Source of the DNA: a virus
Taxonomy: Duplodnaviria > Caudoviricetes
Virus record (IMG/VR): IMGVR_UViG_3300044272_000956
Span: 1 to 35,248 of that record
Reading direction: 5' to 3' (one strand)
DNA length: 35,248 bases
Below, one piece after another: positions 18,616 through 35,248 of the stretch. The stretch's first letter is position 1. Every line of letters starts with the position of its first letter. A program made the position numbers and the translations under genes. The notes below the pieces were generated by a model, which worked only from the letters and a program-made list of their open reading frames with translations, was not told the DNA's origin and searched no databases.

Positions 18616-19437
18616 ATGGCAAGGAACCTCGTCACCGTAGACCAAGTGGTTAATGACTTTGTTCTGACCCTTGACTCTGATGATTACGTCAGCAACGCTT
18701 CTGATGTAGTTATCAGGAACCTTGCCCTGCGCGGAATCAGAGAGATGGGATTCGACATGCTGAAGCGCGTGCGCTCAGTGAAGTTGAACAGAAACAGCAA
18801 CGACACCGTTGACTTGCCAGATGACTTTGTGAGTCTAATTAAGATTGGCATCGTGGGTGACGACGGCTTGGTTCATGTGTTTGCCGAAAACAAGAACATT
18901 GACTACGCTCAAGCCTACGCAAACAGCAGTGGCACCAAGGTGTCTTCTACAGCTGATGCGGTTGACTCTGATGGTGACGGTGTGTTTGACAGGGTAGATG
19001 ACAAAGGAACTACCACTGGTGGTGTCTTCGGAGATGAGGACTTCATCACCTTTAGCAACTACGTCTTTCAGGGCGGCATCGGTCAGATTTACGGTCTTGG
19101 AGGTGGATTCTACGAGGGTCAGTACAGACTCAACGAAGACCAGAACAGGATTGAGCTGTCCGCAGGGTCGGGCAATGAAATCGTTATTGAGTACATCGCA
19201 GACGAGGCCCGCTCTTCAAACCCCACGGTTCATGTGGAGGCTGAGGAGGCTTTGCGTTCTTACATGTACTACAGGCTCATCGAAAGAAAAGCCAGTGTGC
19301 CACTTGGAGAAAAGGGCAGAGCAAGACAGGAGTACTACAACGAAAGAAGAAAGGCGAATGCTAGGCTGAAGGCGTTTAGCAAAGAGGACGCGCTCCAGAC
19401 TATTCGCAAGAACTTCAAGCAAGCACCTAAATACTAA
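18616..19437 (+). CDS. Putative tail tubular/ring protein
   Basis: 273 aa with VDLPDDFVSLIKIG and IVIEYIAD. TAATG-coupled to the stabilisation gene. Confidence 0.65.
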   Translation: MARNLVTVDQVVNDFVLTLDSDDYVSNASDVVIRNLALRGIREMGFDMLKRVRSVKLNRNSNDTVDLPDDFVSLIKIGIVGDDGLVHVFAENKNIDYAQAYANSSGTKVSSTADAVDSDGDGVFDRVDDKGTTTGGVFGDEDFITFSNYVFQGGIGQIYGLGGGFYEGQYRLNEDQNRIELSAGSGNEIVIEYIADEARSSNPTVHVEAEEALRSYMYYRLIERKASVPLGEKGRARQEYYNERRKANARLKAFSKEDALQTIRKNFKQAPKY

Positions 19438-22400
19438 TGGCTATTGAGAAGCTTGTACCCCAGTATCTCAACAAGGATGAGGACGAAAGACTCGTAAAGC
19501 CTTTTGAGATGACCGATGCGCTCAACATCCGCGTTTCACACGAGGATGATGGGAATCAAGGCGTGGTAAAAAACGTGGAGGGTAACACCGCTATCGCCGC
19601 AAGAACTTCCGCAGATGCCATCCCAAGCTCTGGCACCAACAGGGTTATTGGCTGTGTGTCATCCGACGCAGAGAAGAGCATCTACTTCTTTCTTTACAAC
19701 TCGGCTGGAACTCACGGTATCTACCTGTATGACTCCTCTGACAACACCTACAGAAAGGTGTACGAGGATGACGTTCTAAATTTTTCTCAGAGCGGTTTCG
19801 TGAAGGCCGACATTGTTGTCAATCAGTTTCAGGAGCACTTGCTCTACTTCACCGACAACAGAAACGAGCCAAGAAAGATTAACGCAACTAAGGCAGTATT
19901 AGGGCAGTACAGCTCTGCATTAACGAACGGAACAGACGACACCAAATCAAGGTTCCTCACTGTTGCTAAGGCACCACCCCAAGAGCCCATTACGTTTGCC
20001 TTCCAGACCAATCAAAGCTTAGGAGTAAACAACCTCAAGGAGTCTTGCTTTCAATTCGCCTATCAATATGTGTACGATGATGGTGAAGTGTCTGCGCTTT
20101 CTGCGTATTCAGCACTAGCTGTAAGTAGGTCGCACACGGCATTTAACTCCAGAGAGTTTGGCTCACTAGAGAAAAGAAACAATGAGCTTAGGCTGACAAT
20201 CACAAATGCTTACGGCCCGGTTGAGAAGATTAGGCTGTTTGGTAGAAAGAACAATGATGGTGCATTCGTGCTAATCAAAGAGCTCGACAATGTTGAGCCG
20301 ATTAGCTTGGGCACACAGACTCAAGAGTTCATTTTTAGAAACGACGGAGCGTACACTTTTCTTTCTGATGAGGAGGTAAACAAGTCTTTTGATGCTGTTC
20401 CCAGAAGGGCTGGTGCTCAGTGTGTCACTGACGGTAGACTAATCTATGGTAACTACCTAGAGGGTTTCGACAACATCGACACCAATGTCTTCAGCTACCC
20501 TGTTTACAATCCCGAAAGCACTCTCGGCGGCGACTACGACTTTACTGTTGATGACAATGATGCTATTGTTAGGTCTCCTATCGCCTTTTACAGCAGTTCA
20601 AGCGGCTCATACAATACAATCTTTTCAGAGGCTTTCTTTGCTCCGCTCAATGGCGTAAGTAACGCCAGTCCAGCAGAATTAGATTTTGCTTCAAACCACC
20701 TTAGCACGTTTGGCTCTGGTTTCACAGACCCGAATAATACCAGCGACACCAGCTTTACAACGACGGGGATTCATTTTGATGTAGACCTTTCTGAGTTTCC
20801 TGAAGGGGGGTTCCCAGAAGACATGTCCCCATCTATTGACTTCAACGTAAATCTGTCTGCGAGCAAGATTGGGATTGTAGGTCATGGGGATGGAGACTCT
20901 GCTATAGGTGTCCCCGCAAGCACGTTTCAAAACGGCCAGCTCGTTCATTCAGGCACTTGCACCATTCTTCACCCAGACAACTCAAACGGAGCCCTTTCAA
21001 ACCTCGCCCCAAACAGCGACATCATCTTTAACAAGCAGTTTGATGTAACTGGTGTCACAACTCTTGATGCTTTTCGAGATGCTCTTATCGACGGGGTGGT
21101 CGGTCAGACCACTTCATTTGTCGGGGTGTCTCCCGGTCAAACTCCAAGCTCTCAAGCTGGAGACCCTTACGGAAACAACCTGTCTTCTAACGACGACAAC
21201 AGGGGTCAGTTTGGTGGTATGACCACTCACATGGCGATTGTTGCGGGCAACAACCACGACCTAATTCCATCAAATGTCAATAACAACGAGCAACTATTCG
21301 TCGCATTTGCTGGTGAGCTCAAGTTCATTATTCACTCCTCGGCAGTAATCTCTCCGACCAAGGTTAGGTTCTTCGTGCGCATGTCTGGTGTTGACCTCAC
21401 ATCTCAAAAGGTCAAGGCCGTTGACAGGGGTTTTGGCTCCACGCAGACAGGAAACCAGTTCATTGATACTTCGAACCACCCTCTGGTTGAGGAGAACTAC
21501 AGTGGTTATGATGTCTACGACATTGACGAACACAGTGTCATTATCAACTCAACGCATACTAACGCTGACGGATTTACTGTAGAGGATTACGATAACGGAA
21601 GCAGCTCAATCAGAACGCTGCTTTTCGATTACGACGCTACAGGAAATGTAGATGTATTTGGGGAGTCTGACAAGGTTCAAAGCTTCAAGGCTGGTGCAAC
21701 ACATGATTTTGGGATTGTCTATTATGACGAGAGAAACAGAGCGTCTGGTGTTCAGAGAATTGACACCGTAGATGTAGCTCACTTCGGGACTTCTCAAAGG
21801 CAGGGAAGGAACGGGCCCGCTGAGATTGACATGAGGCTCTTGCATGAGCCACCGGAGTGGGCATCAAAGTGGGCTCCTGTGTATAGCAAGAACACCAGCT
21901 ACGACAAGATTATGCAGGTGAGTATTGCTGAGGCTTGTTTGGGCAAGCAAACAACTTTCTCCGACATCCTATCACCTCAAAGTGCGGCAGCGGATAGGGA
22001 CAGACCAGTTATTGAGTCCATTGCTGGGGGAATCAACGGTCAAATCTTTATTTCGATGAGGCCAACTGAAGGCAAGGCAAACTCCTACAAGCAATTCAAG
22101 GGGGGACAGCTTGACTATCAGTATCAAGAGGGGGATGTAATGCGCATCATCGAGTATGTTGGCCCAGATGGTAACCGTGTTAGACCGTTGCACGAGTTTG
22201 CAATCACGTCATACAAGTACTACGTCGATGATGACACGAATCCGATTAAGCTGTCGGTACAATCCACAGCTTCCGGTGGTGCTGTTCAAGCAGACGAAAA
22301 CAACTTCCGAAGAACGGGGTGGTTCTTGACCGTCAGAGACAACAACACCCCAAGGTTTACTAGAGATGAGGTTGCTGTAGGTACGGACTTTTTCTCTCAA

Positions 22401-24773
22401 GGGTGCGTGGTGGAAATCTACAGACCCCAAAAGCAACAGGAAAACAGGATTTACTACGAAGTTGGCAAGTGCTATGACATCAAGACGGTAAGCGGAAGTA
22501 GGACGCACGGAGGCTCTCGCAGCAACTCCTCGATTTCTGCATTTAGCATGACGGTTGAGGGCGAGCTTTCGTTTGTCTCTTCTCAAAGGCTGTACAGAGG
22601 TGATAGGGTCAACACTGGCAATAACGGCGATGGTAATGCTATTAGTGCCACTGGTCGCGTCTTTGTTGAGAGTGTAAGGCCGGAGGGTAATGGGCTGTAC
22701 GCATACAAAGTGCATCCATCGAATCCCTTTGATTCTACCACCATAGGAACTACAGCCGCCTCAAACAACGTAGATACTACGGTGGGCAGCTCGAACAGCT
22801 TGTTTCCCGGTGTAGTTACACTCAAGGAGGGTGACGTTTACATGCGTATCAGGGAGCAGCTATTTAATCCTGAGTCGTCGTTTGAGCCAGTGTCTGGAAC
22901 CACTAGGATTTTCGACCCGACAAAGGTTGATGAGGCCAGATACAGGAAGCAGATTGTAGAATCAGAAAGCGTTAGCGACTTCTTTGATTCTAAGGCGATT
23001 GATATAGGCCGACCATTTATTGAGACGGTAGAGCAAAAAGAGATTGTCCGCGAGTCGGCAGTGACGTACAGCGATAGATTTGTTTCTGACTCCAGCAGAC
23101 TCAACCTTTCCTCGTTCAACCCATCGTTATTCCCATTCAAGGACTACAATAGTCAGCACGGAATCATTACCTATTTGGTTGATGCTGGCGAGTCCTTTTT
23201 CAACCTACAAGAGAACAAGATTAGTCTTACTCCGGTAGGAAGAACCCTGATTCAAAGCACGGGTCAGTCTCAGCTCGTCACCTCTACTGACGTACTTGGC
23301 AAGGAGACATACTTGGCTGGTACCTATGGCCCGGGAAGAAACCCAGAGTCAGTGGTCGAAAGGTTTGGTAGGATTTACTTTTCTGACATGTCCTCGGGCA
23401 AGGTCATTGCGGTGACCGCATCTGGCATCAGTGCGATTAGCGACACCAAGATGGAGTCCTTCTTTGAGACGGCCTTCATGAACGCCTTTGAAAGCTCATC
23501 GACACCCAAACTACCCTCAGGTATTGACCCAGAAAACAACGAGCTTATTGTCACTATTGAAAGCACGGACACGGCACCGCTAACCTTTGGAGGCACAGCT
23601 ATTGGGGACATCGTTAAACCTCCAACGAACCCCGACGTTACATCTGCTGACGGCAGGGTGTCAATCGTTCCATCTACCAACACCCTGACTTGGGACAAAG
23701 ACGAATACCCTTGGGATAGTGACCACATTGATGGCGATGACAGAGAGCCCATTTGGGACAAGACTCACGCCGGGGTTGTGTATGCAGACCTTCTCATGAA
23801 GAGGGGCTCTGTTTTCGTTGACCCAATTCATGTTGACAAGGGAGACAAGATAGCTGTAGACGTTGTATTGAGTACGTCAGGAGAGTTTAGAGGGACTGCT
23901 GAGCTGTCGTGTAAGGATGGCTCAATCAAGTTCTGCACTAACATCATTGACATCGGGACTGATGTAGCCTCAGATGCGTCAGATGCCGTGGCTGTAGGCA
24001 GTACCGTCACCAACAACGGAGACACGATTGCATACTCTACAACGAAAGAGTTTTGGATGACGAGGTACAGCTTCATTCCGGAGATGTATGCTCACATTCA
24101 CAATAGATTCTTCTCCTTTGAAGCGGGTCAGATGTACAGGCACAACATCAATACCACGCGAAACAACTTCTACGGGAATCAATTCACCTCAACCATCGAC
24201 GTGGTTTCAAAGCAGTCACCATCCATGGTTAAGGCTTACACAGCCATGAGTATTGAGGGCAACGACACTTGGTCCGGAACCGTAGAAAACGTCACACAAA
24301 CCACGAACATTACGGAGGCAATGTTTGAGGAGAAAGAGGGCATGTACTACACGAACATTCCTAGGGGTATTGCTGCAAACGCCAGCGATTCTATTGGAAC
24401 TGAGCGTGTTGTTTTGGGTGTTGTTGCATCACAAGCAAACAGCAACAAAGAAATTACCTTTACTTCTAGGATTAGCAACCTTCCGTTCGGTCTTGGAGAC
24501 CAAGTAAAGGCAATCACTGGGTCAGGTGAGGGGACAACAAACAAAAGCATAGAATCAATAAAGGACAGAAAGACAATCGTGGTAGATGAAGACCCCGGAA
24601 ACCTAGTTGGTAGCACGCTATTAGCCTTGTCTTCTGATGTAATCAACGGAGAGGTTTTGAGAGATTACTACGCCAAGTTCAAGCTCGTAAATGACAACAC
24701 ATCTGCGATTGAGCTGTACGGGGTCAATGCGGTGTACACACCTTCTCCACTAGATAACTCACAAAACCAGTAA
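19437..24773 (+). CDS. Tail stabilisation / muzzle-type protein (P22 gp10 / crAss-like)
   Basis: 1778 aa. N-terminal LNKDEDERL...DALNIRV, LYFTDNRNEPRKIN, FAYQYVYDDGEVSALS, RLIYGNYLEG, C-terminal FEEKEGMYY and LRDYYAKFKL. Beta-propeller-like composition. Confidence 0.78.
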   Translation: MAIEKLVPQYLNKDEDERLVKPFEMTDALNIRVSHEDDGNQGVVKNVEGNTAIAARTSADAIPSSGTNRVIGCVSSDAEKSIYFFLYNSAGTHGIYLYDSSDNTYRKVYEDDVLNFSQSGFVKADIVVNQFQEHLLYFTDNRNEPRKINATKAVLGQYSSALTNGTDDTKSRFLTVAKAPPQEPITFAFQTNQSLGVNNLKESCFQFAYQYVYDDGEVSALSAYSALAVSRSHTAFNSREFGSLEKRNNELRLTITNAYGPVEKIRLFGRKNNDGAFVLIKELDNVEPISLGTQTQEFIFRNDGAYTFLSDEEVNKSFDAVPRRAGAQCVTDGRLIYGNYLEGFDNIDTNVFSYPVYNPESTLGGDYDFTVDDNDAIVRSPIAFYSSSSGSYNTIFSEAFFAPLNGVSNASPAELDFASNHLSTFGSGFTDPNNTSDTSFTTTGIHFDVDLSEFPEGGFPEDMSPSIDFNVNLSASKIGIVGHGDGDSAIGVPASTFQNGQLVHSGTCTILHPDNSNGALSNLAPNSDIIFNKQFDVTGVTTLDAFRDALIDGVVGQTTSFVGVSPGQTPSSQAGDPYGNNLSSNDDNRGQFGGMTTHMAIVAGNNHDLIPSNVNNNEQLFVAFAGELKFIIHSSAVISPTKVRFFVRMSGVDLTSQKVKAVDRGFGSTQTGNQFIDTSNHPLVEENYSGYDVYDIDEHSVIINSTHTNADGFTVEDYDNGSSSIRTLLFDYDATGNVDVFGESDKVQSFKAGATHDFGIVYYDERNRASGVQRIDTVDVAHFGTSQRQGRNGPAEIDMRLLHEPPEWASKWAPVYSKNTSYDKIMQVSIAEACLGKQTTFSDILSPQSAAADRDRPVIESIAGGINGQIFISMRPTEGKANSYKQFKGGQLDYQYQEGDVMRIIEYVGPDGNRVRPLHEFAITSYKYYVDDDTNPIKLSVQSTASGGAVQADENNFRRTGWFLTVRDNNTPRFTRDEVAVGTDFFSQGCVVEIYRPQKQQENRIYYEVGKCYDIKTVSGSRTHGGSRSNSSISAFSMTVEGELSFVSSQRLYRGDRVNTGNNGDGNAISATGRVFVESVRPEGNGLYAYKVHPSNPFDSTTIGTTAASNNVDTTVGSSNSLFPGVVTLKEGDVYMRIREQLFNPESSFEPVSGTTRIFDPTKVDEARYRKQIVESESVSDFFDSKAIDIGRPFIETVEQKEIVRESAVTYSDRFVSDSSRLNLSSFNPSLFPFKDYNSQHGIITYLVDAGESFFNLQENKISLTPVGRTLIQSTGQSQLVTSTDVLGKETYLAGTYGPGRNPESVVERFGRIYFSDMSSGKVIAVTASGISAISDTKMESFFETAFMNAFESSSTPKLPSGIDPENNELIVTIESTDTAPLTFGGTAIGDIVKPPTNPDVTSADGRVSIVPSTNTLTWDKDEYPWDSDHIDGDDREPIWDKTHAGVVYADLLMKRGSVFVDPIHVDKGDKIAVDVVLSTSGEFRGTAELSCKDGSIKFCTNIIDIGTDVASDASDAVAVGSTVTNNGDTIAYSTTKEFWMTRYSFIPEMYAHIHNRFFSFEAGQMYRHNINTTRNNFYGNQFTSTIDVVSKQSPSMVKAYTAMSIEGNDTWSGTVENVTQTTNITEAMFEEKEGMYYTNIPRGIAANASDSIGTERVVLGVVASQANSNKEITFTSRISNLPFGLGDQVKAITGSGEGTTNKSIESIKDRKTIVVDEDPGNLVGSTLLALSSDVINGEVLRDYYAKFKLVNDNTSAIELYGVNAVYTPSPLDNSQNQ

Positions 24774-24783: not shown

Positions 24784-25716
24784 ATGGGACCATTCGATGA
24801 ACTAGGAGGGGCAGACCCAAACATTCCACCACCACAAACGCCCGACAACACTGGCGGAGGAGGGGGAAGCACATTCTCCCCTGCAACAGCAGCTGTGGGA
24901 ATGATAGGCTCTGGTGTCGCCACTGCTTTAGGTGGTGTTGTAGACATTTTTGCTGGGAGTGCTGGAATTAAAAGAGGTGAAGAGGCACTTGGGGTTGCGG
25001 AGGCAGAGCTAAAAAAGCTCAAGGCTTCTCAGCCATCTCTGTCAACACCCTCAGAGTACTACGAGGCTGCAAAGAATGCCTATGACCAAAGACTGGTTCA
25101 GATGAGAACCGAGGACATTAACCGTTCCTTAGCTACCACAACGCAGGCAGCGGGTCAGTTTGGGGCCAGAGGTCTTGGGGCTGTAATGCAGGCACAAAGA
25201 GACGCTCAATCTCAGATGAGAACGGAAGCCCTAACGCAGCAACAGCTGCAAACACAGGCTCTCACGAACTTGGCCGATGCAAGACAGCAGGAAGTTGCCA
25301 GAAGGGAGGCACGCTCTACAAGAGACCTTGAGTATGGTTACGACGCACAGGCACTAGCACAAGCTCAAGTTGCTCAAGCTAGACAGCAGCGTACAGCAGG
25401 ATTTGCCGGTGCTCTTGGGGGTGCAGCGCAAGCAGGATTGGGCGCATTGGCTCTTGATAAAATGGGTGGATTCGAAGCACTTGCAGCAGAAAAGGGCGCG
25501 AAGGTTCAAAAGACACCGGGTGAATTTAACCACGACACGAATGAGATGTACGTCGTGGACGAGGACGGCAAGTCCGTAGGTATCGCTCTTACTGGTGGCG
25601 AATACGTCATTGCACCAAAAGACGCAGCTCAGTTGAGAAACCTTTCAAATAAAGGCAAATCAGGTCTGCACAAGTTTGTTAGGAAGCTTGTAAACAGATT
25701 CGAAAAGGCAGACTAA
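24784..25716 (+). CDS. Putative internal virion / DNA ejection (cargo) protein
   Basis: 310 aa. Two G/A-rich hydrophobic helices flank a Q-rich coiled coil, followed by a C-terminal TPGEFNH...LTGGEYVIAP domain. Located after the tail genes. Confidence 0.65.
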   Translation: MGPFDELGGADPNIPPPQTPDNTGGGGGSTFSPATAAVGMIGSGVATALGGVVDIFAGSAGIKRGEEALGVAEAELKKLKASQPSLSTPSEYYEAAKNAYDQRLVQMRTEDINRSLATTTQAAGQFGARGLGAVMQAQRDAQSQMRTEALTQQQLQTQALTNLADARQQEVARREARSTRDLEYGYDAQALAQAQVAQARQQRTAGFAGALGGAAQAGLGALALDKMGGFEALAAEKGAKVQKTPGEFNHDTNEMYVVDEDGKSVGIALTGGEYVIAPKDAAQLRNLSNKGKSGLHKFVRKLVNRFEKAD

Positions 25717-25717
25717 C

Positions 25718-27385
25718 ATGGCAGAAGGAACAAGATTTAAGACTGGTTTTCTCCCAGCACCAATAAGCTACACCAACATCGGTGCTCAGATTGGGGACAG
25801 GATTAGCAAGGGCATTCAGAGCATGTCTGATGAGTTTGAGAGAAAAAGAGCTCAGGCAAATCAGACTATGGGATTTACTGATGCCCTAAAGGATGCTGTG
25901 CCTGCGGGCATTACTTCAAGATACCGGCAGGGTGCTCAACTTCTTTTGGATGAGTATCAAAAGGCAGCTACAAAAGCGTATAGAACTGGTGTTCAATCAG
26001 ACATTGACGAGTATCAAAGGCTTCGTGGAGAGTTCATTGAGTTCAAAAACATTGCAACAGCCAAGAGTGCGTTAGATAATCAAACAAGACTGTCAATCGC
26101 ACAGGGTAATTTCAAGAACCTTTCAGGTGGTATTGCAGAAAACTTAGATAAATACAACGAATACTCTAAAGCAGACTACAGCTTCAACCCAGCCACTAGA
26201 CAGCTTGAGGTTACCGCCGACGGAGGTCAAAAGTATTGGAGGGACTCTAACATCGGGGACATGAATGATGTGTTTGTGCCTTCTGTTCTTTGGCAGGGCA
26301 CAGAGTTCATGCCAGAAAAAGTAGGATTGTCAATCTATGAAGACGTTCTACAGCCAAGAGAAGTAGAGCTTCAGAAGAGAACGGATAGGGGTTTTGCCAC
26401 AGGAGAGCTCAAGGATGCGGAAGCCTATGCCTTGATTGATGCCAACCTAAAATCTCGTCAATCTGTTCGAGGAGCTGAAATGCTGGAGGCCATTCAAGTG
26501 ACTGGCTTCAAGAACATTGAGAAGCCGGGAACCATCAACCTCAATGAAGAAGACTTGGCCGATGCTGGGGTAATTTACAATGAGGAGAACTTGTTTGCCA
26601 ATCCTATTGACAAAGACGGAAATTCTATTGGCAGTATTGGTTCTGGCTCCTTGAACAGCTCAGGTGAGTTTGTCTTTGATGTAAGTGATGAGGAGATTTT
26701 GAACTCCGGATTGATGCCAGAAAGTGCCAAGGAGTACATCCGAACGAGACAGGCCATCAAGCTGTACATGGAATCGAGTGCGAAGATTGCGTATGACCGC
26801 ATCAAGAGGGACAATCAGATGTCTTCTGACCTTACAAGCAGACGCACTGATGCTGCCAATGAAGCAAGGCTCGAAGCCACTCTCGAAAAAGACGCTCCAG
26901 CAACAGACCTCATCCCTGTAAAAGATAGACTTACAATTCCTGAGTTTAGGGATGAAAAGAATAACCTTAGAAAGGCAGAAGAGGTAGATGTTTACCGAGT
27001 CCCTGCAAGCGTCAAGGGTAGGGAGTTTAAGTTTGTCGTAGAGGGGCCAGAGCTCACACCAGAAGAGAAAGCGGCTGGTAAAGAGCAAGCTGCTCAGACG
27101 GTTCTCGTTACCAACGCCGTCCTTGATACCAAGGGAAATCTTGTTGCCTACGATATTGCTACTGGACCGGGACTTATTGAGGGGGTGCAGCAAGACATTG
27201 CTGGTCTCGACTTGAGCACAGAAACTGTGTTTAAGAACGACTCAAGGTTTGAGCTAATTAACAGCAAATTCCGTGCTGTTGACCAGCCAACAGGCAGAAG
27301 AATTGGTAGGGACATTTTGGAAGAGGCACAAAACCGAGTGATTCTAGCAGAGTTCAAGGCATCTCAAGAGGGAGGTCAGGAATAA
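25718..27385 (+). CDS. Putative internal virion / ejection protein
   Basis: 555 aa with a helical N-half, lying between the pilot-like gene and the giant ORF. Confidence 0.55.
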   Translation: MAEGTRFKTGFLPAPISYTNIGAQIGDRISKGIQSMSDEFERKRAQANQTMGFTDALKDAVPAGITSRYRQGAQLLLDEYQKAATKAYRTGVQSDIDEYQRLRGEFIEFKNIATAKSALDNQTRLSIAQGNFKNLSGGIAENLDKYNEYSKADYSFNPATRQLEVTADGGQKYWRDSNIGDMNDVFVPSVLWQGTEFMPEKVGLSIYEDVLQPREVELQKRTDRGFATGELKDAEAYALIDANLKSRQSVRGAEMLEAIQVTGFKNIEKPGTINLNEEDLADAGVIYNEENLFANPIDKDGNSIGSIGSGSLNSSGEFVFDVSDEEILNSGLMPESAKEYIRTRQAIKLYMESSAKIAYDRIKRDNQMSSDLTSRRTDAANEARLEATLEKDAPATDLIPVKDRLTIPEFRDEKNNLRKAEEVDVYRVPASVKGREFKFVVEGPELTPEEKAAGKEQAAQTVLVTNAVLDTKGNLVAYDIATGPGLIEGVQQDIAGLDLSTETVFKNDSRFELINSKFRAVDQPTGRRIGRDILEEAQNRVILAEFKASQEGGQE

Positions 27386-27401: not shown

Positions 27402-30400
27402 ATGGACGAACAGTTAAAGGCACTGCTTACAGAGGCGCAGGCTAATGGTGCTTCTGAATCAGAACTTCTAGCGATTATTGCCCAGTACAATAGTCAAAAA
27501 AAAAAAGAAGACACTTCACAATCTCCCTTGGTTTCGGAGGTGGGTTCGTTGGATTCAAGCTCGCCTACACCTCTGGGTGGAGAACAAGACGATGCACTTT
27601 CGGATTTTCTTACGGCACCGAGGATAGGTGATACGCGGATTCCAGAGTTTGAGGCAAACATTCTAAACGATTATGCCGCGTCGTTCGACAATGCGTACCT
27701 CCAAACGATTTATGAAAAGTTTGACGTTTCCAAGTTTACGGATATTGTCGGCATTGATGGCACTCAATCTAGCTATCAAGAATTTCTAAATGCCTTTAAC
27801 CAGTCAACTACCGAGGACGAGAGGTTCACAGCTAAAAAAGAGCTGGTTGATTTTTTGATTGAAGAAGGAGACCCTGATTTTGAGATAAACAGAAAGGTTC
27901 TTGGCGCGGTGACGGATGAGGTTTACAAAGACCTCACTGGAAACCCAGAGCTTGAGGGAGAAGGCATCTTAACGCCTGTTCCTCTCAAAACTCAAGTGTC
28001 TAAATCCCTTCAAGACTTAGGCTCGGGAGTTGCTACTAGGTCTGGTGCCAAACTTAGGGAGAATCTACCTCAAGAGATTCTGCAAGACCCCAAAAAGGTA
28101 AGCGATTATGAGAGGTATTTGTATGACAATTACGGGTTGTCTGTTGACCTAAATGAAGACAAATACATCGGTGGTGTAGAAGTCGTTGAAGGTGGTGCTT
28201 TTGCTGGATTTGGACGTTCTGTATCTAAGGCGTGGAAAGAAACCATGGCTGGTGCAAACTTCATGCTTGGTGACGCAGTGGCTACCATGTTTGGCGACGA
28301 CAATGCGTTTACTCAGTGGGCGATTCGTGCTGGTGAGGAGGGTAGCAAGCAGGCGGAAGAGATTGCAAAGCAGCTGCCGATTTCTCTAGAAAGACTTTCA
28401 GCCAAAACAGACAAGGTTCTGTCTGGTCAGGGTGATGAAGGTGAGTTTGATGACTTGATTAACGACTACCTAAGAATGGGCGGAGAGTCCGTCCCAATGA
28501 TGGGAGGTGCAATCGCGGCTGGGGTGTTGACTAGGGGCGCGGCATCGAGAAGCACGGGGCTTGCACAGCTGAGGTCTTCATTAAAGGGGTTGAAGCGTGT
28601 TGAGCAGATTGCCAAGGTCAGACAATTCCAAGCCGCTGGAAGAACTGTTTCTCAAGCCAAGAAAATTATCAAGACAAGTCAGACTGCTGGTGCGTTTACC
28701 GCAACTAGTGCCATGGGTATGGGCACACAATACAATGCAGTAAGAGACGAGGAGTGGTTCCAAGAAATGAGTGGGGCAGAGAAGGCCGCATACACTTCAA
28801 TCATGGGTGTTGCCGAAGGTCTTCCCGCACTCGTTGCGGCAAACATCAGTGCGCGAGCACTGGGTAGGCTTTCTAGGGCTGGTAAGGAAAACTTTGTCAA
28901 GGGCTTCTTGAAGGCGACAGGTCTGGGCATGATTGAGGAGGGTGCTACCGAAGCCACTACAGCTGCCATCCAGTTCATCACAGAGTCTGGGTTTAGGGAT
29001 GGTGTCTTGCCGTTTGAGATGGCTGGATTGGGGCGCATTCGATTCAACGACAAGTTTGATGTCGATGGCTTTACAGCCGCAGTAAAAGACGGCTTGTATG
29101 GGGGTATTGCTCTTGGTGGGGGTGTGTCCGTAACCGCACAAATCCCGGGTGCCATTTACGCTGGTGCCATGGCAGTTACATCGCTGCCCGCAGTACGCGA
29201 CTCCATCAAAATTGATAAGCTCACTAGAGAGTACGACAGCGCACCCGACCAAGCCACAAGACAGGAGATTGGCAAGAAGCTGGAGGAGGCTGTTATGGGG
29301 CGGGCTACTAGAAACCGCAACAGAAGAAAGTTTTACGAAGACCTATTCGAAAACAACAAGGAGGCTTGGTCACAGCTTACTGGAATCCAGAAGCAAATCA
29401 TCCGACTGGGCTTGCAGTATGAGAGAACTGAGAAGGGCGAAACCCGCGACGGGTTCAAGGCAGAGATGGTTGCCCTCCTTGAGGAAAGAACCAAGCTTGA
29501 GAAGGAGCTTGGAATGGAGTACGACCTTGACATCAACAAAGAGTTCAAGCGTGTCAGCGGTAGAATCTCTAAGATTGACAGGTATTACAACGACTACGGC
29601 TCTCTGTTTGAGGGTGACTCAGAGTCCACCACTGTCACCGGAGAAAACGCAGACACAGTTCTCGATGCGATTAACGAGGTCACATTCAACAGGATTGACC
29701 AAGTTGAAAAGCTAAGCACGGGGGTAAGCATGAAGCGTGCTCTCAAAAATGTGGTAACTGTAGCCAAAGCACTAGCCAAGACAGGTAAGTTTGAGGGTGT
29801 TGTAATTCACAAGACCGACACATCATTCATGAACGCGACTGGAGAGGCTCTTGGTCGCGGCATGTGGCTGGGCAAGGGTAGGATTCACATCTACGCACCA
29901 GCTGCCATGGAAAACACCTCCTTTCACGAGGCGTTTCACGACCTTGTTCTTGAGGCTATTGGTGAGGATGCGGTACAGCAGCTGTCAGTCTCTTTGTACA
30001 AGGGGCTGTCTGGAGAACTGCGAAAGAAGTACAACAACTTCCTTGCTGGTCAAAGGGGTGTTACACGTCGTCAGGCGCAAGAGATGGAGAGAGACCCCAT
30101 GACTGCTGAAGAGTTCTTGGTTGAGCTGCTTGGGGACATTACGACTGGCGATGTAAGTATTGAAGTTCAAAAGGGACTGGTAAATCAGTTCAAAGACTTT
30201 GTTGCCAAGGCCGTTAACACCATCCCCGGTGTAGAGGTGGACATGACTGAGGCAGACCCAAGGGTAGCAGACCTTGTTACAGCTATCCAGAAAATGACTG
30301 GTCAGCTTGCAGCTGGTGAGGCAGTAACTGCGACCGAAGACCTGCGTAAAGCCGCTGTTCGTGCGGGCTATAGCGCGATGACGGTGGAGCTCGCCGACAT

Positions 30401-33400
30401 GGATGCCAAGGCTCAGGGAATCTTTGCCAGAAACAGGGATGTAGAGGAGGTTACCGATGCTGGGCGTTGGGCGGCTGCTATGGCAGAGGCTACGGATAGG
30501 ATGAAGGAGCTCAAGCAGAAGATGTTCCTTCAGGTTACCGCCATGACCGAGGCTCAGGCGCAGGAAATACTTGATGACGGCGGCAAGCTGTTTATGACCA
30601 AGGATGGGCTAGGGGGTGCGTACCTCAAAGCCGACGGGTACATGGGCGGCCTGTTCAAAAACCCCGACTCACAGCTCAAAGCAATTAGCGGTCCACTTCA
30701 GACTATCAGAGCAAGAGAAGGCGGCAAGTTCTACGATGCGTTTGCTACGAGGCTCGAAGAGATTTACGTCAAGAACGGGTGGAAGCCAGTTGCTAGACTT
30801 GACTTCGACGAACAGTTTGCGCCAGAAGGTTGGAACGACCCGGACTCTCCGCTGAGAGACAAGCCGGACGTTGTGTTTTTCGTGAAGGGAGAAGGCAAAG
30901 TCGGTGACGGTATTCGGATGTCGAGGGGTCTTGAGGATGACTACGATAGAGCATACGACTACACGAAGAGTGTTGCCGATGGTAAGCCACAAGCCCTTGT
31001 CCGCGCCCTAGAAGAGAAGGTGGGTAGGGAGTCATACCTCCAAACTCAAGGTGTGACTGAGGAAGAATTGGAGAAGAGAAAGGAGGAGCTTCGTCTTGAA
31101 GAAAACCAAAGACAAAAAAGAACCCCGAAGGTTGTAGATGCACTGAAGAGGTATGTTGCTCAAGAAATTACGCAGGAACAGTACATCGAAATTGTAAGAA
31201 CGGAATCCCCCATCACGCCGTTCAAGGTTGTTCCTGAAATTCCCCCAACTCTGGACATGGGTGCTGTCTTGACCAGCAACAAGACCGAGACGGGAATCAT
31301 CGGACTCAATAAAGAGGTTCCTGACAACTACTACGTTGGTTTGCGCCTAGATATTCCTGCCTATGACTTCTTCGATACATGGGTAGTTTCCGTTCACCAA
31401 GGTTCAAAGACGGGTGAAAGGTCACCACACATGGGAGGAAAGCCCATTGGCTATGCTCAGACTGCGCTTGCGACAAACGTAGAGTTTCATTCCGTTCCTC
31501 TGGGTGCTTTGAACATCGCCTTGGAAAAAAACAAGCAGACTATCGCAAGAATGTTTGGTGATTGGAATAACCACAATCCCGGAGAGCTTCGTCAGCGTGC
31601 GATAGACATCATGGCCGGAGACCAGTACAACATCTCAGACCACCCCGTAGGAAAGCACGAGGGTTGGGTGCAGGTGGGCATGAACCCCTTCCGTCACAGC
31701 TGGTTCTATGACAAGAGGGACGGTAATCCCATTGTGTCTGCATCTGAGGTCATTCAGATTGGTGCCCTTGTACTCGCTAAGGATGTAGAGAAAGTTCCCG
31801 TCACTGACGAGCGATTCAGCATAGTCACCAAAGATGGCGTGCCAATTAAGTTTCAGCACATCCTTCCGGGTCAAGACGGCATGGACACCAAGGTGTCTTT
31901 TAGCAACAAAGCCCAGAAGTTTGGTCGCATCTCAAACAGATACGCGGTAGAGGACGGTGAGTTCGAAGAGAGTGCTGATGTGGTGCTTCACAATGCCGTG
32001 TTCGATGAGGTGCTCAACGAAAGCAGAGTGATTGTCTCCTCTCCAGACCACATGCTCGTTGGCACAGTTTATCTGGACGACGAGGTTCTGGCTGAGGGTG
32101 GCGGTGGATTGTACTATCCTGTCCGCACCAAGAATACATGGGCGTTCGGTCAGAAAGGTGATGCTAATGCATTCAAGAATACGGTAAACCAGATGCGAGC
32201 CGATTCCCCTGACGGTAAGGTGCACATCTTACTTGTCAGCGGAACCGACGACAAGGTGAAGAGCAACATCACCACGATGGAGGCTACGATGAACCTCATG
32301 GACAGCCTTGTCGGTGAGAAGATTCTTACACAGAATCAAGTTGACAAGCTCATCGTTGATTCCTTGAACGACATCATCGACGCTCTCCCAGCTAAGGATG
32401 AGGGTAAGTTCGGCGATAAGGTTAAGTTCAAGGGTAAGCGAGCTGACATTCGTGCAGCTGTAGAGGCAAGCCTGCGTAGAACAGACAATACCTCGTTCGA
32501 GCTGAGAAGGAAGTACATGGACAAGCTGTTCGCCAACCTTGGGCGTATGTCTGTGATTAAAGAAAACCCCAAGTCTCTTGCCACCATCAAGGAAATGACT
32601 GGTGTGGACAGGATGACCAAGGGTCAGGTGGGTAGCACGCTGAAACGAACCACTATTCTCGCCATGATTGAGGGGTACTTGCAGGGTGTCCCACAAGACG
32701 TGGTGTACGCAGCTATTGAGGTTGACTCAGACCTTGAGGTTGACATGATGCCGGGTAATGAGGCGTTCCCAGCCGCTGTGGTTATGAGGGATGCCAACGG
32801 AAACAAGAAGACACCTAAGATTCACTTGTTTGCAGACAAGCCCCACGTTAACGACGTAATGCTTGACAACGAGACTGGCCTTAGCAGGGCAGACTTCATG
32901 GAGGCTAAGCTTGCCGACGGTGAGTACGCCATGAAAGAGGTGAGAAAGGGTGTGTTTGAGAGGAGAAGCGAGGCGAACGAGCGCAAGGCGATTGACGGCA
33001 GATGGAAGGGCAGCATGGGCTTGCTTCAGGCGGCCTACGGGCGCGGTAAAACCAGACCCAAAGCTCAGGCCATTGCTGATACGGAGGCTAAGGCTCAGGG
33101 CAGCTTCTTGAAGAAGGTATCTCAGATGATTGATAAGGCGTACCCGTCGCCAATCATCACCAGAGACAAGAGAAGAAAGAATCCAGTGACTGGACTTGAC
33201 GAGTCTCAACAGATGGATGCCTTCGCCTACGCTAAGGATGAGGTCATCAAGACCCTGATGGACATGGGCATGTCTAAAGAGGGGGCTGAGATGATGTTCA
33301 AGAAGGCCGTTGCCTACAAGCAGGGTCGATTGCAGGGTAAAAAAGAGGGTATGCGTGTGGCTATGGCTAACGCAGCTGAGACCCGCAAGATGGGAACCAA

Positions 33401-35248
33401 GGCCAAGAACTTACAGAAGGCTCTCACGCAGCTCAAGGACAAGTCAAAAACATTCAACGAGTTCCTGACTGAGGCTATCAAGCTGATTGACGAACGCATG
33501 AAGGAGAACGCAAAGACTCCATTCACCCGCTCTCAAATCACAGCTATGGTCAAGGCCATCAGACAGGCTCACAAGACAAGCGGCAAGCGCGTTGAAGCGG
33601 AGGGGCTGGAGGCTATGCAAACCTTCATTGACAAAATCTCTGCCATCTTTGACAAGCGCGACTCCAAAGCAGAAATGCAGCGGTACTTGGACGGCATCAA
33701 GCATGCTCAGAAGTTGCAGAAGCGACTCAAGAGAATGGCTAGGCCGAAGGGTAGAAGCGGAGCAGCAAAGAACGTAACGACCTACGCCAAGATTGCAAAC
33801 GGTCTTGCTAGAATCAACCCGGCCCTGCTTCCTCAGAACGAACTGGAGGGTTTCGTAAACACACTGATGTCCACCATCAGCTCGATGTCCAAGACCAAGG
33901 CTGTCTTTGACCCTGAGATTGAGGCGTATGTTGGTGCTGCCTTCCCCAAGGCCGAAGCACAGCTGCTGTACAACAAGCTCAGCAACTATCAGGCTATGGA
34001 GGAGCTGGGTAGGCAGGCCGTATTCATGGCTCGTGCTCAACTTCGTGCGGCTAAAAACAACACCACCGTAGAGGAGGAGTATGACAAGCTGGTCAAAAAC
34101 TACGAGCGCAGTAGGCTGTCCTCTAGCAGGAGAGCCATCCTAAAATTCATTGACGAGAACCCAACGATTCAGCACCCCGACACAGGTGAGACCGTTGTTC
34201 TCAACGCAAGCAACCCCGCTCACGTTGACCTGATTACTCAGATTTTGGCTGACCAAGCGGTGACTAAAGAGGAGTTGCAGAAGGATGCCATCATCAACGA
34301 TGTGCTACTACCAAGGATTGTAGCCAACATTGAAAAGCTTCTAGAGGATACTCAGATTGCCGACATTCTTGGAATCTACAGCGTGGAAGACCTTGACTTT
34401 GATAAGCTCAGAGAAAGGCTAAACAAGTTGAAGAGGCATCACATCATCAACCTTGACTACAGGCTTGACGACTACATTGTTAACGACTCGGTGTACGGCA
34501 TCGGGTACATGCACGCTTTGGTGCAGGGCAACATCGACATGCCCAGTAAGCTCGACCGTCTGGTAAAGCGTAAGGGTCTGAAGGCTAGAAAGGGTGCGTT
34601 CTTTGGCATGCTGGATACCGTAAACTCCTACCTGTCCAACGTCATTCCCACTGACAGGATAACCTTTGCCAAGCTTAGGGTTGCGATTGGTTTGGCACAG
34701 CTAACCAATGACTTTGCTAAGGCTGACTTCATTCACAGTCAGGTTGTTGAGCTTCTTGAATCTGAGATTGACAGAATCACTGAGGAGGGTGGAAGCGTAA
34801 CCACGAGAATGGATAGGGCTATCATGCAGCTTTACTCTATGGCTAAGCAGATGCCCGAGTTTGAAGGTGAGCGCGGACAGGCTGAAGCTGCTTGGTACTT
34901 GGAGCTTCGTAATGCAATGCGTAGAACCATTGACTACTACGCTGAGCAACAATCTTTTTCTAATCAAGAGATTGATGAATTTGAAGATGCATTTTCATAC
35001 CTGTTTAATCAGGCTGAAACCCTTCCCGAGATGATTGCTCGTATCGAGTCTGAACGAAAGGACGTGGTGGAGATGGTGCAGTTCACAGCTGACATCCACA
35101 CCAGCCTCATGCCAGCGTTCAGGAACTACGTTGAAAGGTATCTTGGAAAGGAGTTGGTTGTGGAAGACAACTACACGGCGTTCGAGGTTATCCCAGAGAC
35201 GGGAGCAAAGGACGTGGACGACATGCTTCAAATGCGAATCTCTTTGAT
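27402..35248 (+). CDS. Giant multidomain (polyvalent) internal virion protein, at least 2615 aa, truncated by the window end; contains HExxH zincin and GNAT-like domains
   Basis: ATG 27402 (MDEQLKALLTEAQANGASESELL...). Every stretch I translated is open, and the track lists no terminated ORF in this frame. HEAFH at 29925-29939 with downstream EEFLVE; FYDAFATRLEEIYVKNGWKPVAR at about 30730-30800. Confidence 0.88.
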   Translation, partial: MDEQLKALLTEAQANGASESELLAIIAQYNSQKKKEDTSQSPLVSEVGSLDSSSPTPLGGEQDDALSDFLTAPRIGDTRIPEFEANILNDYAASFDNAYLQTIYEKFDVSKFTDIVGIDGTQSSYQEFLNAFNQSTTEDERFTAKKELVDFLIEEGDPDFEINRKVLGAVTDEVYKDLTGNPELEGEGILTPVPLKTQVSKSLQDLGSGVATRSGAKLRENLPQEILQDPKKVSDYERYLYDNYGLSVDLNEDKYIGGVEVVEGGAFAGFGRSVSKAWKETMAGANFMLGDAVATMFGDDNAFTQWAIRAGEEGSKQAEEIAKQLPISLERLSAKTDKVLSGQGDEGEFDDLINDYLRMGGESVPMMGGAIAAGVLTRGAASRSTGLAQLRSSLKGLKRVEQIAKVRQFQAAGRTVSQAKKIIKTSQTAGAFTATSAMGMGTQYNAVRDEEWFQEMSGAEKAAYTSIMGVAEGLPALVAANISARALGRLSRAGKENFVKGFLKATGLGMIEEGATEATTAAIQFITESGFRDGVLPFEMAGLGRIRFNDKFDVDGFTAAVKDGLYGGIALGGGVSVTAQIPGAIYAGAMAVTSLPAVRDSIKIDKLTREYDSAPDQATRQEIGKKLEEAVMGRATRNRNRRKFYEDLFENNKEAWSQLTGIQKQIIRLGLQYERTEKGETRDGFKAEMVALLEERTKLEKELGMEYDLDINKEFKRVSGRISKIDRYYNDYGSLFEGDSESTTVTGENADTVLDAINEVTFNRIDQVEKLSTGVSMKRALKNVVTVAKALAKTGKFEGVVIHKTDTSFMNATGEALGRGMWLGKGRIHIYAPAAMENTSFHEAFHDLVLEAIGEDAVQQLSVSLYKGLSGELRKKYNNFLAGQRGVTRRQAQEMERDPMTAEEFLVELLGDITTGDVSIEVQKGLVNQFKDFVAKAVNTIPGVEVDMTEADPRVADLVTAIQKMTGQLAAGEAVTATEDLRKAAVRAGYSAMTVELADMDAKAQGIFARNRDVEEVTDAGRWAAAMAEATDRMKELKQKMFLQVTAMTEAQAQEILDDGGKLFMTKDGLGGAYLKADGYMGGLFKNPDSQLKAISGPLQTIRAREGGKFYDAFATRLEEIYVKNGWKPVARLDFDEQFAPEGWNDPDSPLRDKPDVVFFVKGEGKVGDGIRMSRGLEDDYDRAYDYTKSVADGKPQALVRALEEKVGRESYLQTQGVTEEELEKRKEELRLEENQRQKRTPKVVDALKRYVAQEITQEQYIEIVRTESPITPFKVVPEIPPTLDMGAVLTSNKTETGIIGLNKEVPDNYYVGLRLDIPAYDFFDTWVVSVHQGSKTGERSPHMGGKPIGYAQTALATNVEFHSVPLGALNIALEKNKQTIARMFGDWNNHNPGELRQRAIDIMAGDQYNISDHPVGKHEGWVQVGMNPFRHSWFYDKRDGNPIVSASEVIQIGALVLAKDVEKVPVTDERFSIVTKDGVPIKFQHILPGQDGMDTKVSFSNKAQKFGRISNRYAVEDGEFEESADVVLHNAVFDEVLNESRVIVSSPDHMLVGTVYLDDEVLAEGGGGLYYPVRTKNTWAFGQKGDANAFKNTVNQMRADSPDGKVHILLVSGTDDKVKSNITTMEATMNLMDSLVGEKILTQNQVDKLIVDSLNDIIDALPAKDEGKFGDKVKFKGKRADIRAAVEASLRRTDNTSFELRRKYMDKLFANLGRMSVIKENPKSLATIKEMTGVDRMTKGQVGSTLKRTTILAMIEGYLQGVPQDVVYAAIEVDSDLEVDMMPGNEAFPAAVVMRDANGNKKTPKIHLFADKPHVNDVMLDNETGLSRADFMEAKLADGEYAMKEVRKGVFERRSEANERKAIDGRWKGSMGLLQAAYGRGKTRPKAQAIADTEAKAQGSFLKKVSQMIDKAYPSPIITRDKRRKNPVTGLDESQQMDAFAYAKDEVIKTLMDMGMSKEGAEMMFKKAVAYKQGRLQGKKEGMRVAMANAAETRKMGTKAKNLQKALTQLKDKSKTFNEFLTEAIKLIDERMKENAKTPFTRSQITAMVKAIRQAHKTSGKRVEAEGLEAMQTFIDKISAIFDKRDSKAEMQRYLDGIKHAQKLQKRLKRMARPKGRSGAAKNVTTYAKIANGLARINPALLPQNELEGFVNTLMSTISSMSKTKAVFDPEIEAYVGAAFPKAEAQLLYNKLSNYQAMEELGRQAVFMARAQLRAAKNNTTVEEEYDKLVKNYERSRLSSSRRAILKFIDENPTIQHPDTGETVVLNASNPAHVDLITQILADQAVTKEELQKDAIINDVLLPRIVANIEKLLEDTQIADILGIYSVEDLDFDKLRERLNKLKRHHIINLDYRLDDYIVNDSVYGIGYMHALVQGNIDMPSKLDRLVKRKGLKARKGAFFGMLDTVNSYLSNVIPTDRITFAKLRVAIGLAQLTNDFAKADFIHSQVVELLESEIDRITEEGGSVTTRMDRAIMQLYSMAKQMPEFEGERGQAEAAWYLELRNAMRRTIDYYAEQQSFSNQEIDEFEDAFSYLFNQAETLPEMIARIESERKDVVEMVQFTADIHTSLMPAFRNYVERYLGKELVVEDNYTAFEVIPETGAKDVDDMLQMRISL
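27496..27506 (+). repeat. A11 homopolymer at codons 32-35 of the giant ORF
   Basis: CAA AAA AAA AAA GAA; the longest homopolymer I saw in the window. Confidence 0.9.

Follow-up and report, generated by a model that had tools for sequence, protein, structure and literature searches.

The window analyzed here is the whole 35,248-nucleotide stretch of the IMG/VR virus record IMGVR_UViG_3300044272_000956 (Caudoviricetes). It ends in a giant open reading frame (ORF) that encodes an N-terminal region, a zincin-like metallopeptidase domain, three putative cargo domains (D1, D2 and D3) and a conserved C-terminal part, with the short motif K-x-Q (hereafter the tag) at the joints after the zincin. Comparison with relatives shows that the tags bound modules that are gained, lost and replaced, that such tags occur only downstream of the zincin, and that each zincin lineage has its own tag. 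We consider it probable that the tags form a cleavage code read by the resident zincin of an injected polyprotein. Zincin-driven autoproteolytic release of domains from polyvalent proteins was already proposed in 2017 (Iyer et al., PMC5512222), and a zincin has also been suggested to cleave the fused crAss-like polyprotein of phi14:2 gp65-67 (bioRxiv 10.1101/2020.03.07.982082). The present analysis documents a defined tag, its swaps and its co-variation with the zincin.

K-x-Q tags at the domain joints

The original prediction had read HEAFH, EEFLVE and six K-x-Q motifs, and all of them are present at the positions given, within the ORF at 27402-35248. The features of this ORF are as follows.

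27402..35248, + strand: giant ORF, 2,615 amino acids in the window and open at the 3′ contig end; likely a virion cargo (ejection) protein
27402..29693, + strand: N-terminal region, amino acids 1-764, with a Gly/Ala-rich middle and without conserved K-x-Q
29694..30398, + strand: zincin-like metallopeptidase domain, amino acids 765-999
30408..30416, + strand: tag 1, KAQ (amino acids 1003-1005), at the zincin-D1 joint
30417..30983, + strand: cargo D1, amino acids 1006-1194, predicted GNAT acetyltransferase fold, absent from several relatives
30984..30992, + strand: tag 2, KPQ (amino acids 1195-1197), at the D1-D2 joint; relatives have KAQ, KRQ, KKQ or KQQ
30993..31847, + strand: cargo D2, amino acids 1198-1482, a widespread mobile domain with no function assigned
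31848..31856, + strand: tag 3a, KFQ (amino acids 1483-1485), at the end of D2
31908..31916, + strand: tag 3b, KAQ (amino acids 1503-1505), at the start of D3
31917..33059, + strand: cargo D3, amino acids 1506-1886, an alpha/beta domain without a family match
33060..33068, + strand: tag 4a, KAQ (amino acids 1887-1889), at the end of D3
33090..33098, + strand: tag 4b, KAQ (amino acids 1897-1899), at the start of the C-terminal part
33099..35248, + strand: start of the conserved C-terminal part (amino acids 1900-3311), common to all 12 cargo arrangements found among relatives

The full-length protein has 3,311 amino acids in identical IMG/VR contigs (L001-L003). Over the whole window ORF, nine K-x-Q were found against 8.7 expected, and the three outside the joints (amino acids 196, 1740 and 2104), which the original prediction did not list, are not conserved. 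The narrower pattern K[APF]Q occurs six times against 1.45 expected, a pattern picked post hoc. Since the window ORF alone does not exceed chance, the case for non-random tags rests on the relatives. Among 26 homologues, 85 K-x-Q are expected in the cargo zone and 174 occur, whereas no excess is seen in the N part (65, with 63 expected) or the C part (88, with 114 expected). Of 27 sequences, 15 homologues were aligned after removal of near-copies, partial sequences and P0013. K and Q are found in all 15 at amino acids 1003, 1195, 1483, 1503 and 1897 and are kept in 12 at amino acid 1887, with the flanks of the tags conserved at 43-65%. The anticipated conservation at homologue junctions was therefore recovered at five of the six sites. 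K-x-Q is present at the position of tag 4b in 29 of the 31 relatives examined (26/26, then 3/5 further). The form first proposed, K-(A/P/F)-Q, is too narrow: its middle position accepts many residues, and the wider family has R in place of K.

The tags are kept by selection on the protein, not the DNA, because both Lys codons (AAG 57, AAA 14) and both Gln codons (CAG 43, CAA 28) are used and 25 different 9-mers are found across 71 sites. This codon variation is about that of the remaining gene, and the DNA flanking the tags is unrelated from site to site.

An AlphaFold2 model of amino acids 755-1905 (41 alignment rows; mean predicted local distance difference test score, pLDDT, 76) comprises four domains with the tags at domain edges. 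The four are the zincin and three cargo domains, which agrees with the three discrete segments noticed at first after the zincin. The tags at 1003 and 1897 are within segments of pLDDT <50, the 1195 tag is in a loop and the 1887 tag is at the end of the confident part. By contrast, the final strand predicted for D2 includes KFQ 1483, and the first D3 strand begins with KAQ 1503.

Modules are gained, lost and replaced at the tags

The giant protein joins several unrelated domains. Its relatives have the same N part, zincin and C part, and the segment between them varies. L054-L058 lack D1, L049-L053 carry one more small domain, some relatives have DUF7178, LPD23-linked or other domains in place of D3, and L128 has no cargo at all. 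LPD23, ART-PolyVal and LPD38 are present in relatives. The idea of a swappable cassette is thus well matched by domain gains, losses and replacements at the tags among the 12 arrangements. Taking one protein per arrangement, K-x-Q was counted by eye, without a shuffle control, at 35 of 42 joints. The remaining seven are two joints in L107, one in L128, two in P0030, the D0-D1 joint of L049 and one in L104; the untagged joints of L107 and L128 have K-S-A-Q or nothing, those of P0030 have K-P-L and R-F-Q, and those of L049 and L104 are bare. When the tags were masked, 25 of 81 BLAST end points, which are noisy and not independent, fell at most 10 amino acids from K-x-Q, versus 10.6% for random positions.

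Cargo alleles look as if they had been exchanged between relatives. Compared with P0007, identity is 88-92% for the zincin, D3 and C part but only 79% for D1 and 71% for D2. Of 14 aligned relatives with D2 identities of 54-76%, 13 have D3 identities of 28-37%.

The tag class follows the zincin lineage

Within the 40 amino acids after the zincin, [KR]-x-Q is found in 69 of 93 family members against a background of 17.8%, and some sub-lineages use other tags at this place. D2 was used as a probe, and the tag at its end was classed in 148 non-redundant proteins, 16 of which remain unclassed. K/R-F-Q ends D2 in 33 proteins, all with an HExxH zincin and never with Pro after HExxH. Q-F-S is found in 14 proteins, and all 10 of these with an HExxH match have HExxH-Pro. 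Nine proteins have K/R/Y-F-S, six of them with HExxGH, and three have x-F-R. The largest class, F-x-x-G-G, comprises 73 proteins, which are shorter ones; an HExxH-like motif was found in just three, and the zincin profile gave no match in four F-x-x-G-G loci (L059, L060, L081 and L082). E-E-x-x-H zincin variants accompany E-x-R-type tags.

We then compared trees of the zincin and of D2 for the same 46 zincin-bearing proteins, with near-copies thinned and tag labels set by hand (P0060 and P0155 assigned manually). The tag class changes four times on the zincin tree versus 10 times on the D2 tree, with a minimum of three and with modest support values. The tag thus follows the host protein and is rewritten upon cargo transfer. 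The position of D1 provides a second comparison. Where D1 lies downstream of the zincin, it is tagged at 16 of 23 starts and 22 of 23 ends; where it lies upstream, in a set that may represent few lineages only, none of the 17 starts and one of the 17 ends has a tag (background 14%). These results, namely that the tag follows the zincin lineage and that tags occur only downstream of the zincin, lend support to the polyprotein reading.

In one lineage the gene is naturally broken directly behind the protease. P0035 carries S-F-R tags and lacks a zincin. In its relative L245, the giant protein is split in two (L245:4141-18742): an N part that has the zincin at its end, and a cargo part bearing S-F-R tags. 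The cargo protein has 2,927 amino acids and eight [SF]FR tags against 0.57 expected, and a zincin of the same family (E 6.5e-21) ends the gene upstream of it. The L245 cargo protein also has a weak zincin-like insert (E 0.0045), which is absent from P0035. A ferritin-like gene (L245:9492-9995) is located between the zincin-bearing N part and the cargo part.

The zincin and cargo domains

The zincin is predicted to be intact from motif conservation and predicted fold. HEAFH is encoded at 29925-29939 (amino acid 842) and EEFLVE at 30108-30125 (amino acid 903), and H842, E843, H846, E904 and E908 are found in all 63 aligned relatives. Neither the metal ligands nor the catalytic Glu vary among these relatives, in line with the zincin named in the original prediction. 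Its predicted secondary structure runs through a helix, three strands, the HEAFH helix and a second helix with EEFLxE, an order that agrees with the MPTase core layout of Iyer et al. (PMC5512222). A search with the zincin region found 26 proteins among 5,157 candidates. The window zincin itself had no Pfam or PDB match at threshold, and zincins of relatives have weak Pfam matches to several zinc peptidase families. Modelling the zincin together with Zn and a double-tag peptide of 32 residues gave an uninformative score of 0.03. Zincin-like domains with E-E-x-x-H instead of H-E-x-x-H are found in the giant ORFs of L061, L063 and L064, paired with seam tags E-R-A-[AS] or E-S-R-E-G-G. In addition, the giant ORF of L104 has a second zincin-like cargo domain at amino acids 1340-1560, with K-A-Q inside its C-terminal part and no obvious joint there.

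D1 is predicted to be a GNAT acetyltransferase, the fold of which starts directly after tag 1. The D1 model aligns with 1ghe_A over 138 residues (Z 11.3, root-mean-square deviation 2.8), all 50 structural matches listed (VIA) are GNATs, and Foldseek agrees at E 0.0025 or weaker; D1 folded from its single sequence reaches a pLDDT of only 38. The structure searches of the four-domain model were filled by D1 matches, so that D2, D3 and the zincin were barely probed by them. With D1 as the one cargo domain that has a predicted fold, the cargoes are at most candidates for the host-takeover or anti-defense effectors of the original prediction. D2 is found in 1,247 cluster representatives at E≤0.001 and weakly resembles mycobacteriophage L5 gp82 (PF25735), which 34 of 39 members match. 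Assignment of D2 as an ADP-ribosyltransferase, based on scattered R, S and E residues, was not adopted. The ESM Atlas returned no usable match for D2 or D3, and the listed literature offered nothing usable on L5 gp82 or on Elemo proteomics. P0013 was omitted from alignments because of ~190 amino acids inserted within D2 (amino acids 1433-1609), away from the tags, through either chimeric assembly or a rare event. In other lineages (L188-L242), D3 homologues have other repeated tags, N-Y-S-I, S-F-Q and S-F-S, on either side.

Proposed processing and its alternatives

Processing by the resident zincin would proceed as follows. The giant chain would be packaged whole and then ejected, and the zincin, which could act in trans as well as in cis, would cut its own chain at the K-x-Q tags. 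The predicted GNAT acetyltransferase (D1) and the unassigned D2 and D3 would be released from between the constant N-terminal and C-terminal parts, so that the N part keeps the zincin and D1, D2, D3 and the C part are freed. Cutting would most likely take place in the host, once the ejected chain has refolded; alternatively, it would occur inside the head. The doubled tags could be explained if each module brings its own leading and trailing tag. On the assumption that the cut falls after Gln, the predicted pieces would be ~109, 21, 33, 43 and 160 kDa, and two spacers (20 and 10 residues) would be left over. If true, this would explain how several independent enzymes are delivered by one huge ejected chain, offer a rule for dividing uncharacterized giant phage proteins into working units, and define a family of small-tag, mutually distinct proteases.

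Several points weigh against this reading. Cleavage at the tags is a prediction with indirect, comparative support. Seven of the 42 joints lack a strict tag although the zincins of these proteins keep HExxH. A protein can carry seam tags and have no zincin of its own, since only three of the 73 F-x-x-G-G proteins have an HExxH-like motif. The co-variation does not single out the zincin, because the zincin tree also represents the whole host protein and the phage, and the contrast between upstream and downstream D1 is tempered by the few lineages that the upstream set may represent. The Phe of KFQ may be partly structural, as it is kept in all lineages and lies on a predicted strand. An ArdC-like zincin could act in trans on the tags. 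Finally, among published zincin-bearing cargo proteins, the N4 virion RNA polymerase, ArdC and TraC1 reportedly undergo packaging or transfer without being cut (PMC5512222), and the authors of the phi24B study propose peptidoglycan degradation for their metallopeptidase, the zincin of gp47 (bioRxiv 10.64898/2026.04.10.717836).

Some of these points favor a different explanation, which we regard as rather unlikely: the tags would stay uncut and act as signals for docking, threading or pausing, by binding to the zincin fold, the C-terminal part or the tail machinery. This binding would take place during packing or ejection, and the zincin would instead attack the cell wall or host proteins. The uncut N4 polymerase has an HExxH domain in a region needed for encapsidation (PMC5512222), and in the N4 structure this domain is complexed with the polymerase (PMC13434306). 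The phi24B proposal and the F-x-x-G-G seam tags, nearly all without a zincin, point in the same direction. However, a lineage-specific three-residue tag that stands at both module ends and changes with the active-site type of the zincin better fits a protease site, and so do the confinement of the tags to the region downstream of the zincin and the gene break right after the zincin in L245.

It is quite unlikely, in our view, that the tags are cut by another protease, be it an ArdC-like zincin, an M43 peptidase, an unrecognized head protease or a host protease. Candidates are present, as an ArdC-N and MPTase-PolyVal gene is found in all six near-complete relatives (L243:6792-7796, G002-G006) and an M43 peptidase in three of the six. 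Against this, the M43 peptidase is missing from the other three, and profile searches with working controls found the S78 protease and a ClpP-type protease in none of five near-complete relatives; the S77 protease was also found in none of the five, a search that is uninformative since its control was silent. The N-termini of the probable scaffold and capsid protein in the window have no K-x-Q nearby, and the 21 other window ORFs contain 14 K-x-Q versus 19 expected, which is no excess. KFQ, KPQ and KKQ depart from the pattern of the host signal peptidase, A-x-A followed by Gln. Moreover, an outside protease leaves the restriction of the tags to joints downstream of the zincin unexplained. It is very improbable, and largely refuted, that DNA recombination left the tags as footprints or that they occur by chance in linkers rich in Lys and Gln: K-x-Q is indeed unenriched over the whole ORF and modules do swap at tag points, but codon use at the tags is about as variable as elsewhere in the gene, the flanking DNA is unrelated between sites, and K and Q are invariant while neighboring residues change.

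Beyond cleavage by the resident zincin in this family, we lean slightly towards a wider scheme in Bacteroidota podophages and many others. A giant protein would be ejected, its zincin would read a lineage-specific three-residue code, and any domain with the local tag at both ends would be released as an early effector. The protease and its code would diverge together (K/R-x-Q, Q-x-S, x-F-S, S-F-R, E-x-R). If so, the tags would give the exact boundaries of hundreds of uncharacterized injected enzymes.

Relation to known giant phage proteins

The window protein resembles the polyvalent proteins of Iyer et al. (PMC5512222) in being giant and multidomain, in its zincin core with HExxH and a distal Glu, and in its variable enzyme cargo, including the GNAT in the window protein and LPD23, ART-PolyVal and LPD38 in relatives. 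Unlike the window family, with its tag, swaps and zincin co-variation, these proteins have no cleavage site or linker motif named in the peptidase section and the passages covered, and the window zincin and D1-D3 match none of their LPD/MPTase Pfam models at threshold. More generally, the literature listings covered and the papers cited here name no cleavage sites for such zincins. A defined tag, fragment sizes, natural tag variants and a cultured relative make the 2017 proposal testable.

The cultured relative is the Flavobacterium phage elemo (Elemovirus), gp18 of which (YP_010108995) has the same zincin family and D3, with R-F-Q and R-Q-Q at joints. It differs in its cargo order and in having R for K, and shares ~25% identity over 15% of its length. 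Among crAss-like phages, the virion cargo proteins crAss001 gp45-gp50 (PMC10172136) share the gene order of muzzle, two smaller cargo genes and giant cargo, and for phi14:2 gp65-67 a zincin has been suggested to cleave the fused "polyprotein". The window family differs from crAss-like cargo in lacking RNA polymerase homology, in having swappable small domains as cargo and in its genomes of about 57-61 kb. Homology to the two-barrel virion RNA polymerase was looked for with a full-length family profile, which found nothing below E 0.6 among PDB sequences, and the window giant ORF has no Pfam or PHROG match. The N4 virion RNA polymerase and phi24B gp47 are also giant, ejected proteins with an HExxH metallopeptidase-like domain; self-processing or seam tags are not reported for them in the passages covered. 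The prohead-protease code (T4 gp21 type) uses the same motif across head proteins, whereas the other window ORFs show no K-x-Q excess.

Gene context in the window

The window is an entire 35-kb virus contig and contains a head and tail gene module, with genes for a co-chaperonin, terminase, portal, probable scaffold and capsid protein, ring-like proteins and a muzzle-like protein. Upstream of the giant ORF are the following features.

19437..24773, + strand: muzzle-like tail protein (crAss_MUZ_C), upstream context of the giant ORF
24784-25716, + strand: 310-amino-acid ORF, probable smaller cargo protein from gene order
25718-27385, + strand: 555-amino-acid ORF, probable smaller cargo protein from gene order

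The order of the muzzle-like gene, two mid-sized ORFs and the giant ORF matches the crAss001 cargo gene order. From its gene position and the annotation "structural protein" of the Elemovirus homologue, the giant protein is likely packaged in the virion and injected into the host. We infer a possible role of its N-terminal region in the ejection conduit. A membrane-spanning N-terminal part receives no support from hydropathy, as a strong hydrophobic segment is absent (maximum 1.31). The host is inferred to be a member of the Bacteroidota because the probable capsid protein shares ~29% identity with Flavobacterium and Cellulophaga phage proteins (85 records). PDB sequence searches yielded no significant match to the zincin, D1, D2, D3, the full family, the 310-amino-acid ORF or the muzzle-like protein. 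A GroES-like co-chaperonin gene (1940-2521) lies immediately 5′ of the terminase gene. The 310-amino-acid ORF has a C-terminal domain of ~75 amino acids after A-E-K-G-A-K, which resembles the F-x-x-G-G seam class. Judging from the end of this ORF, the window phage may have a second tag system.

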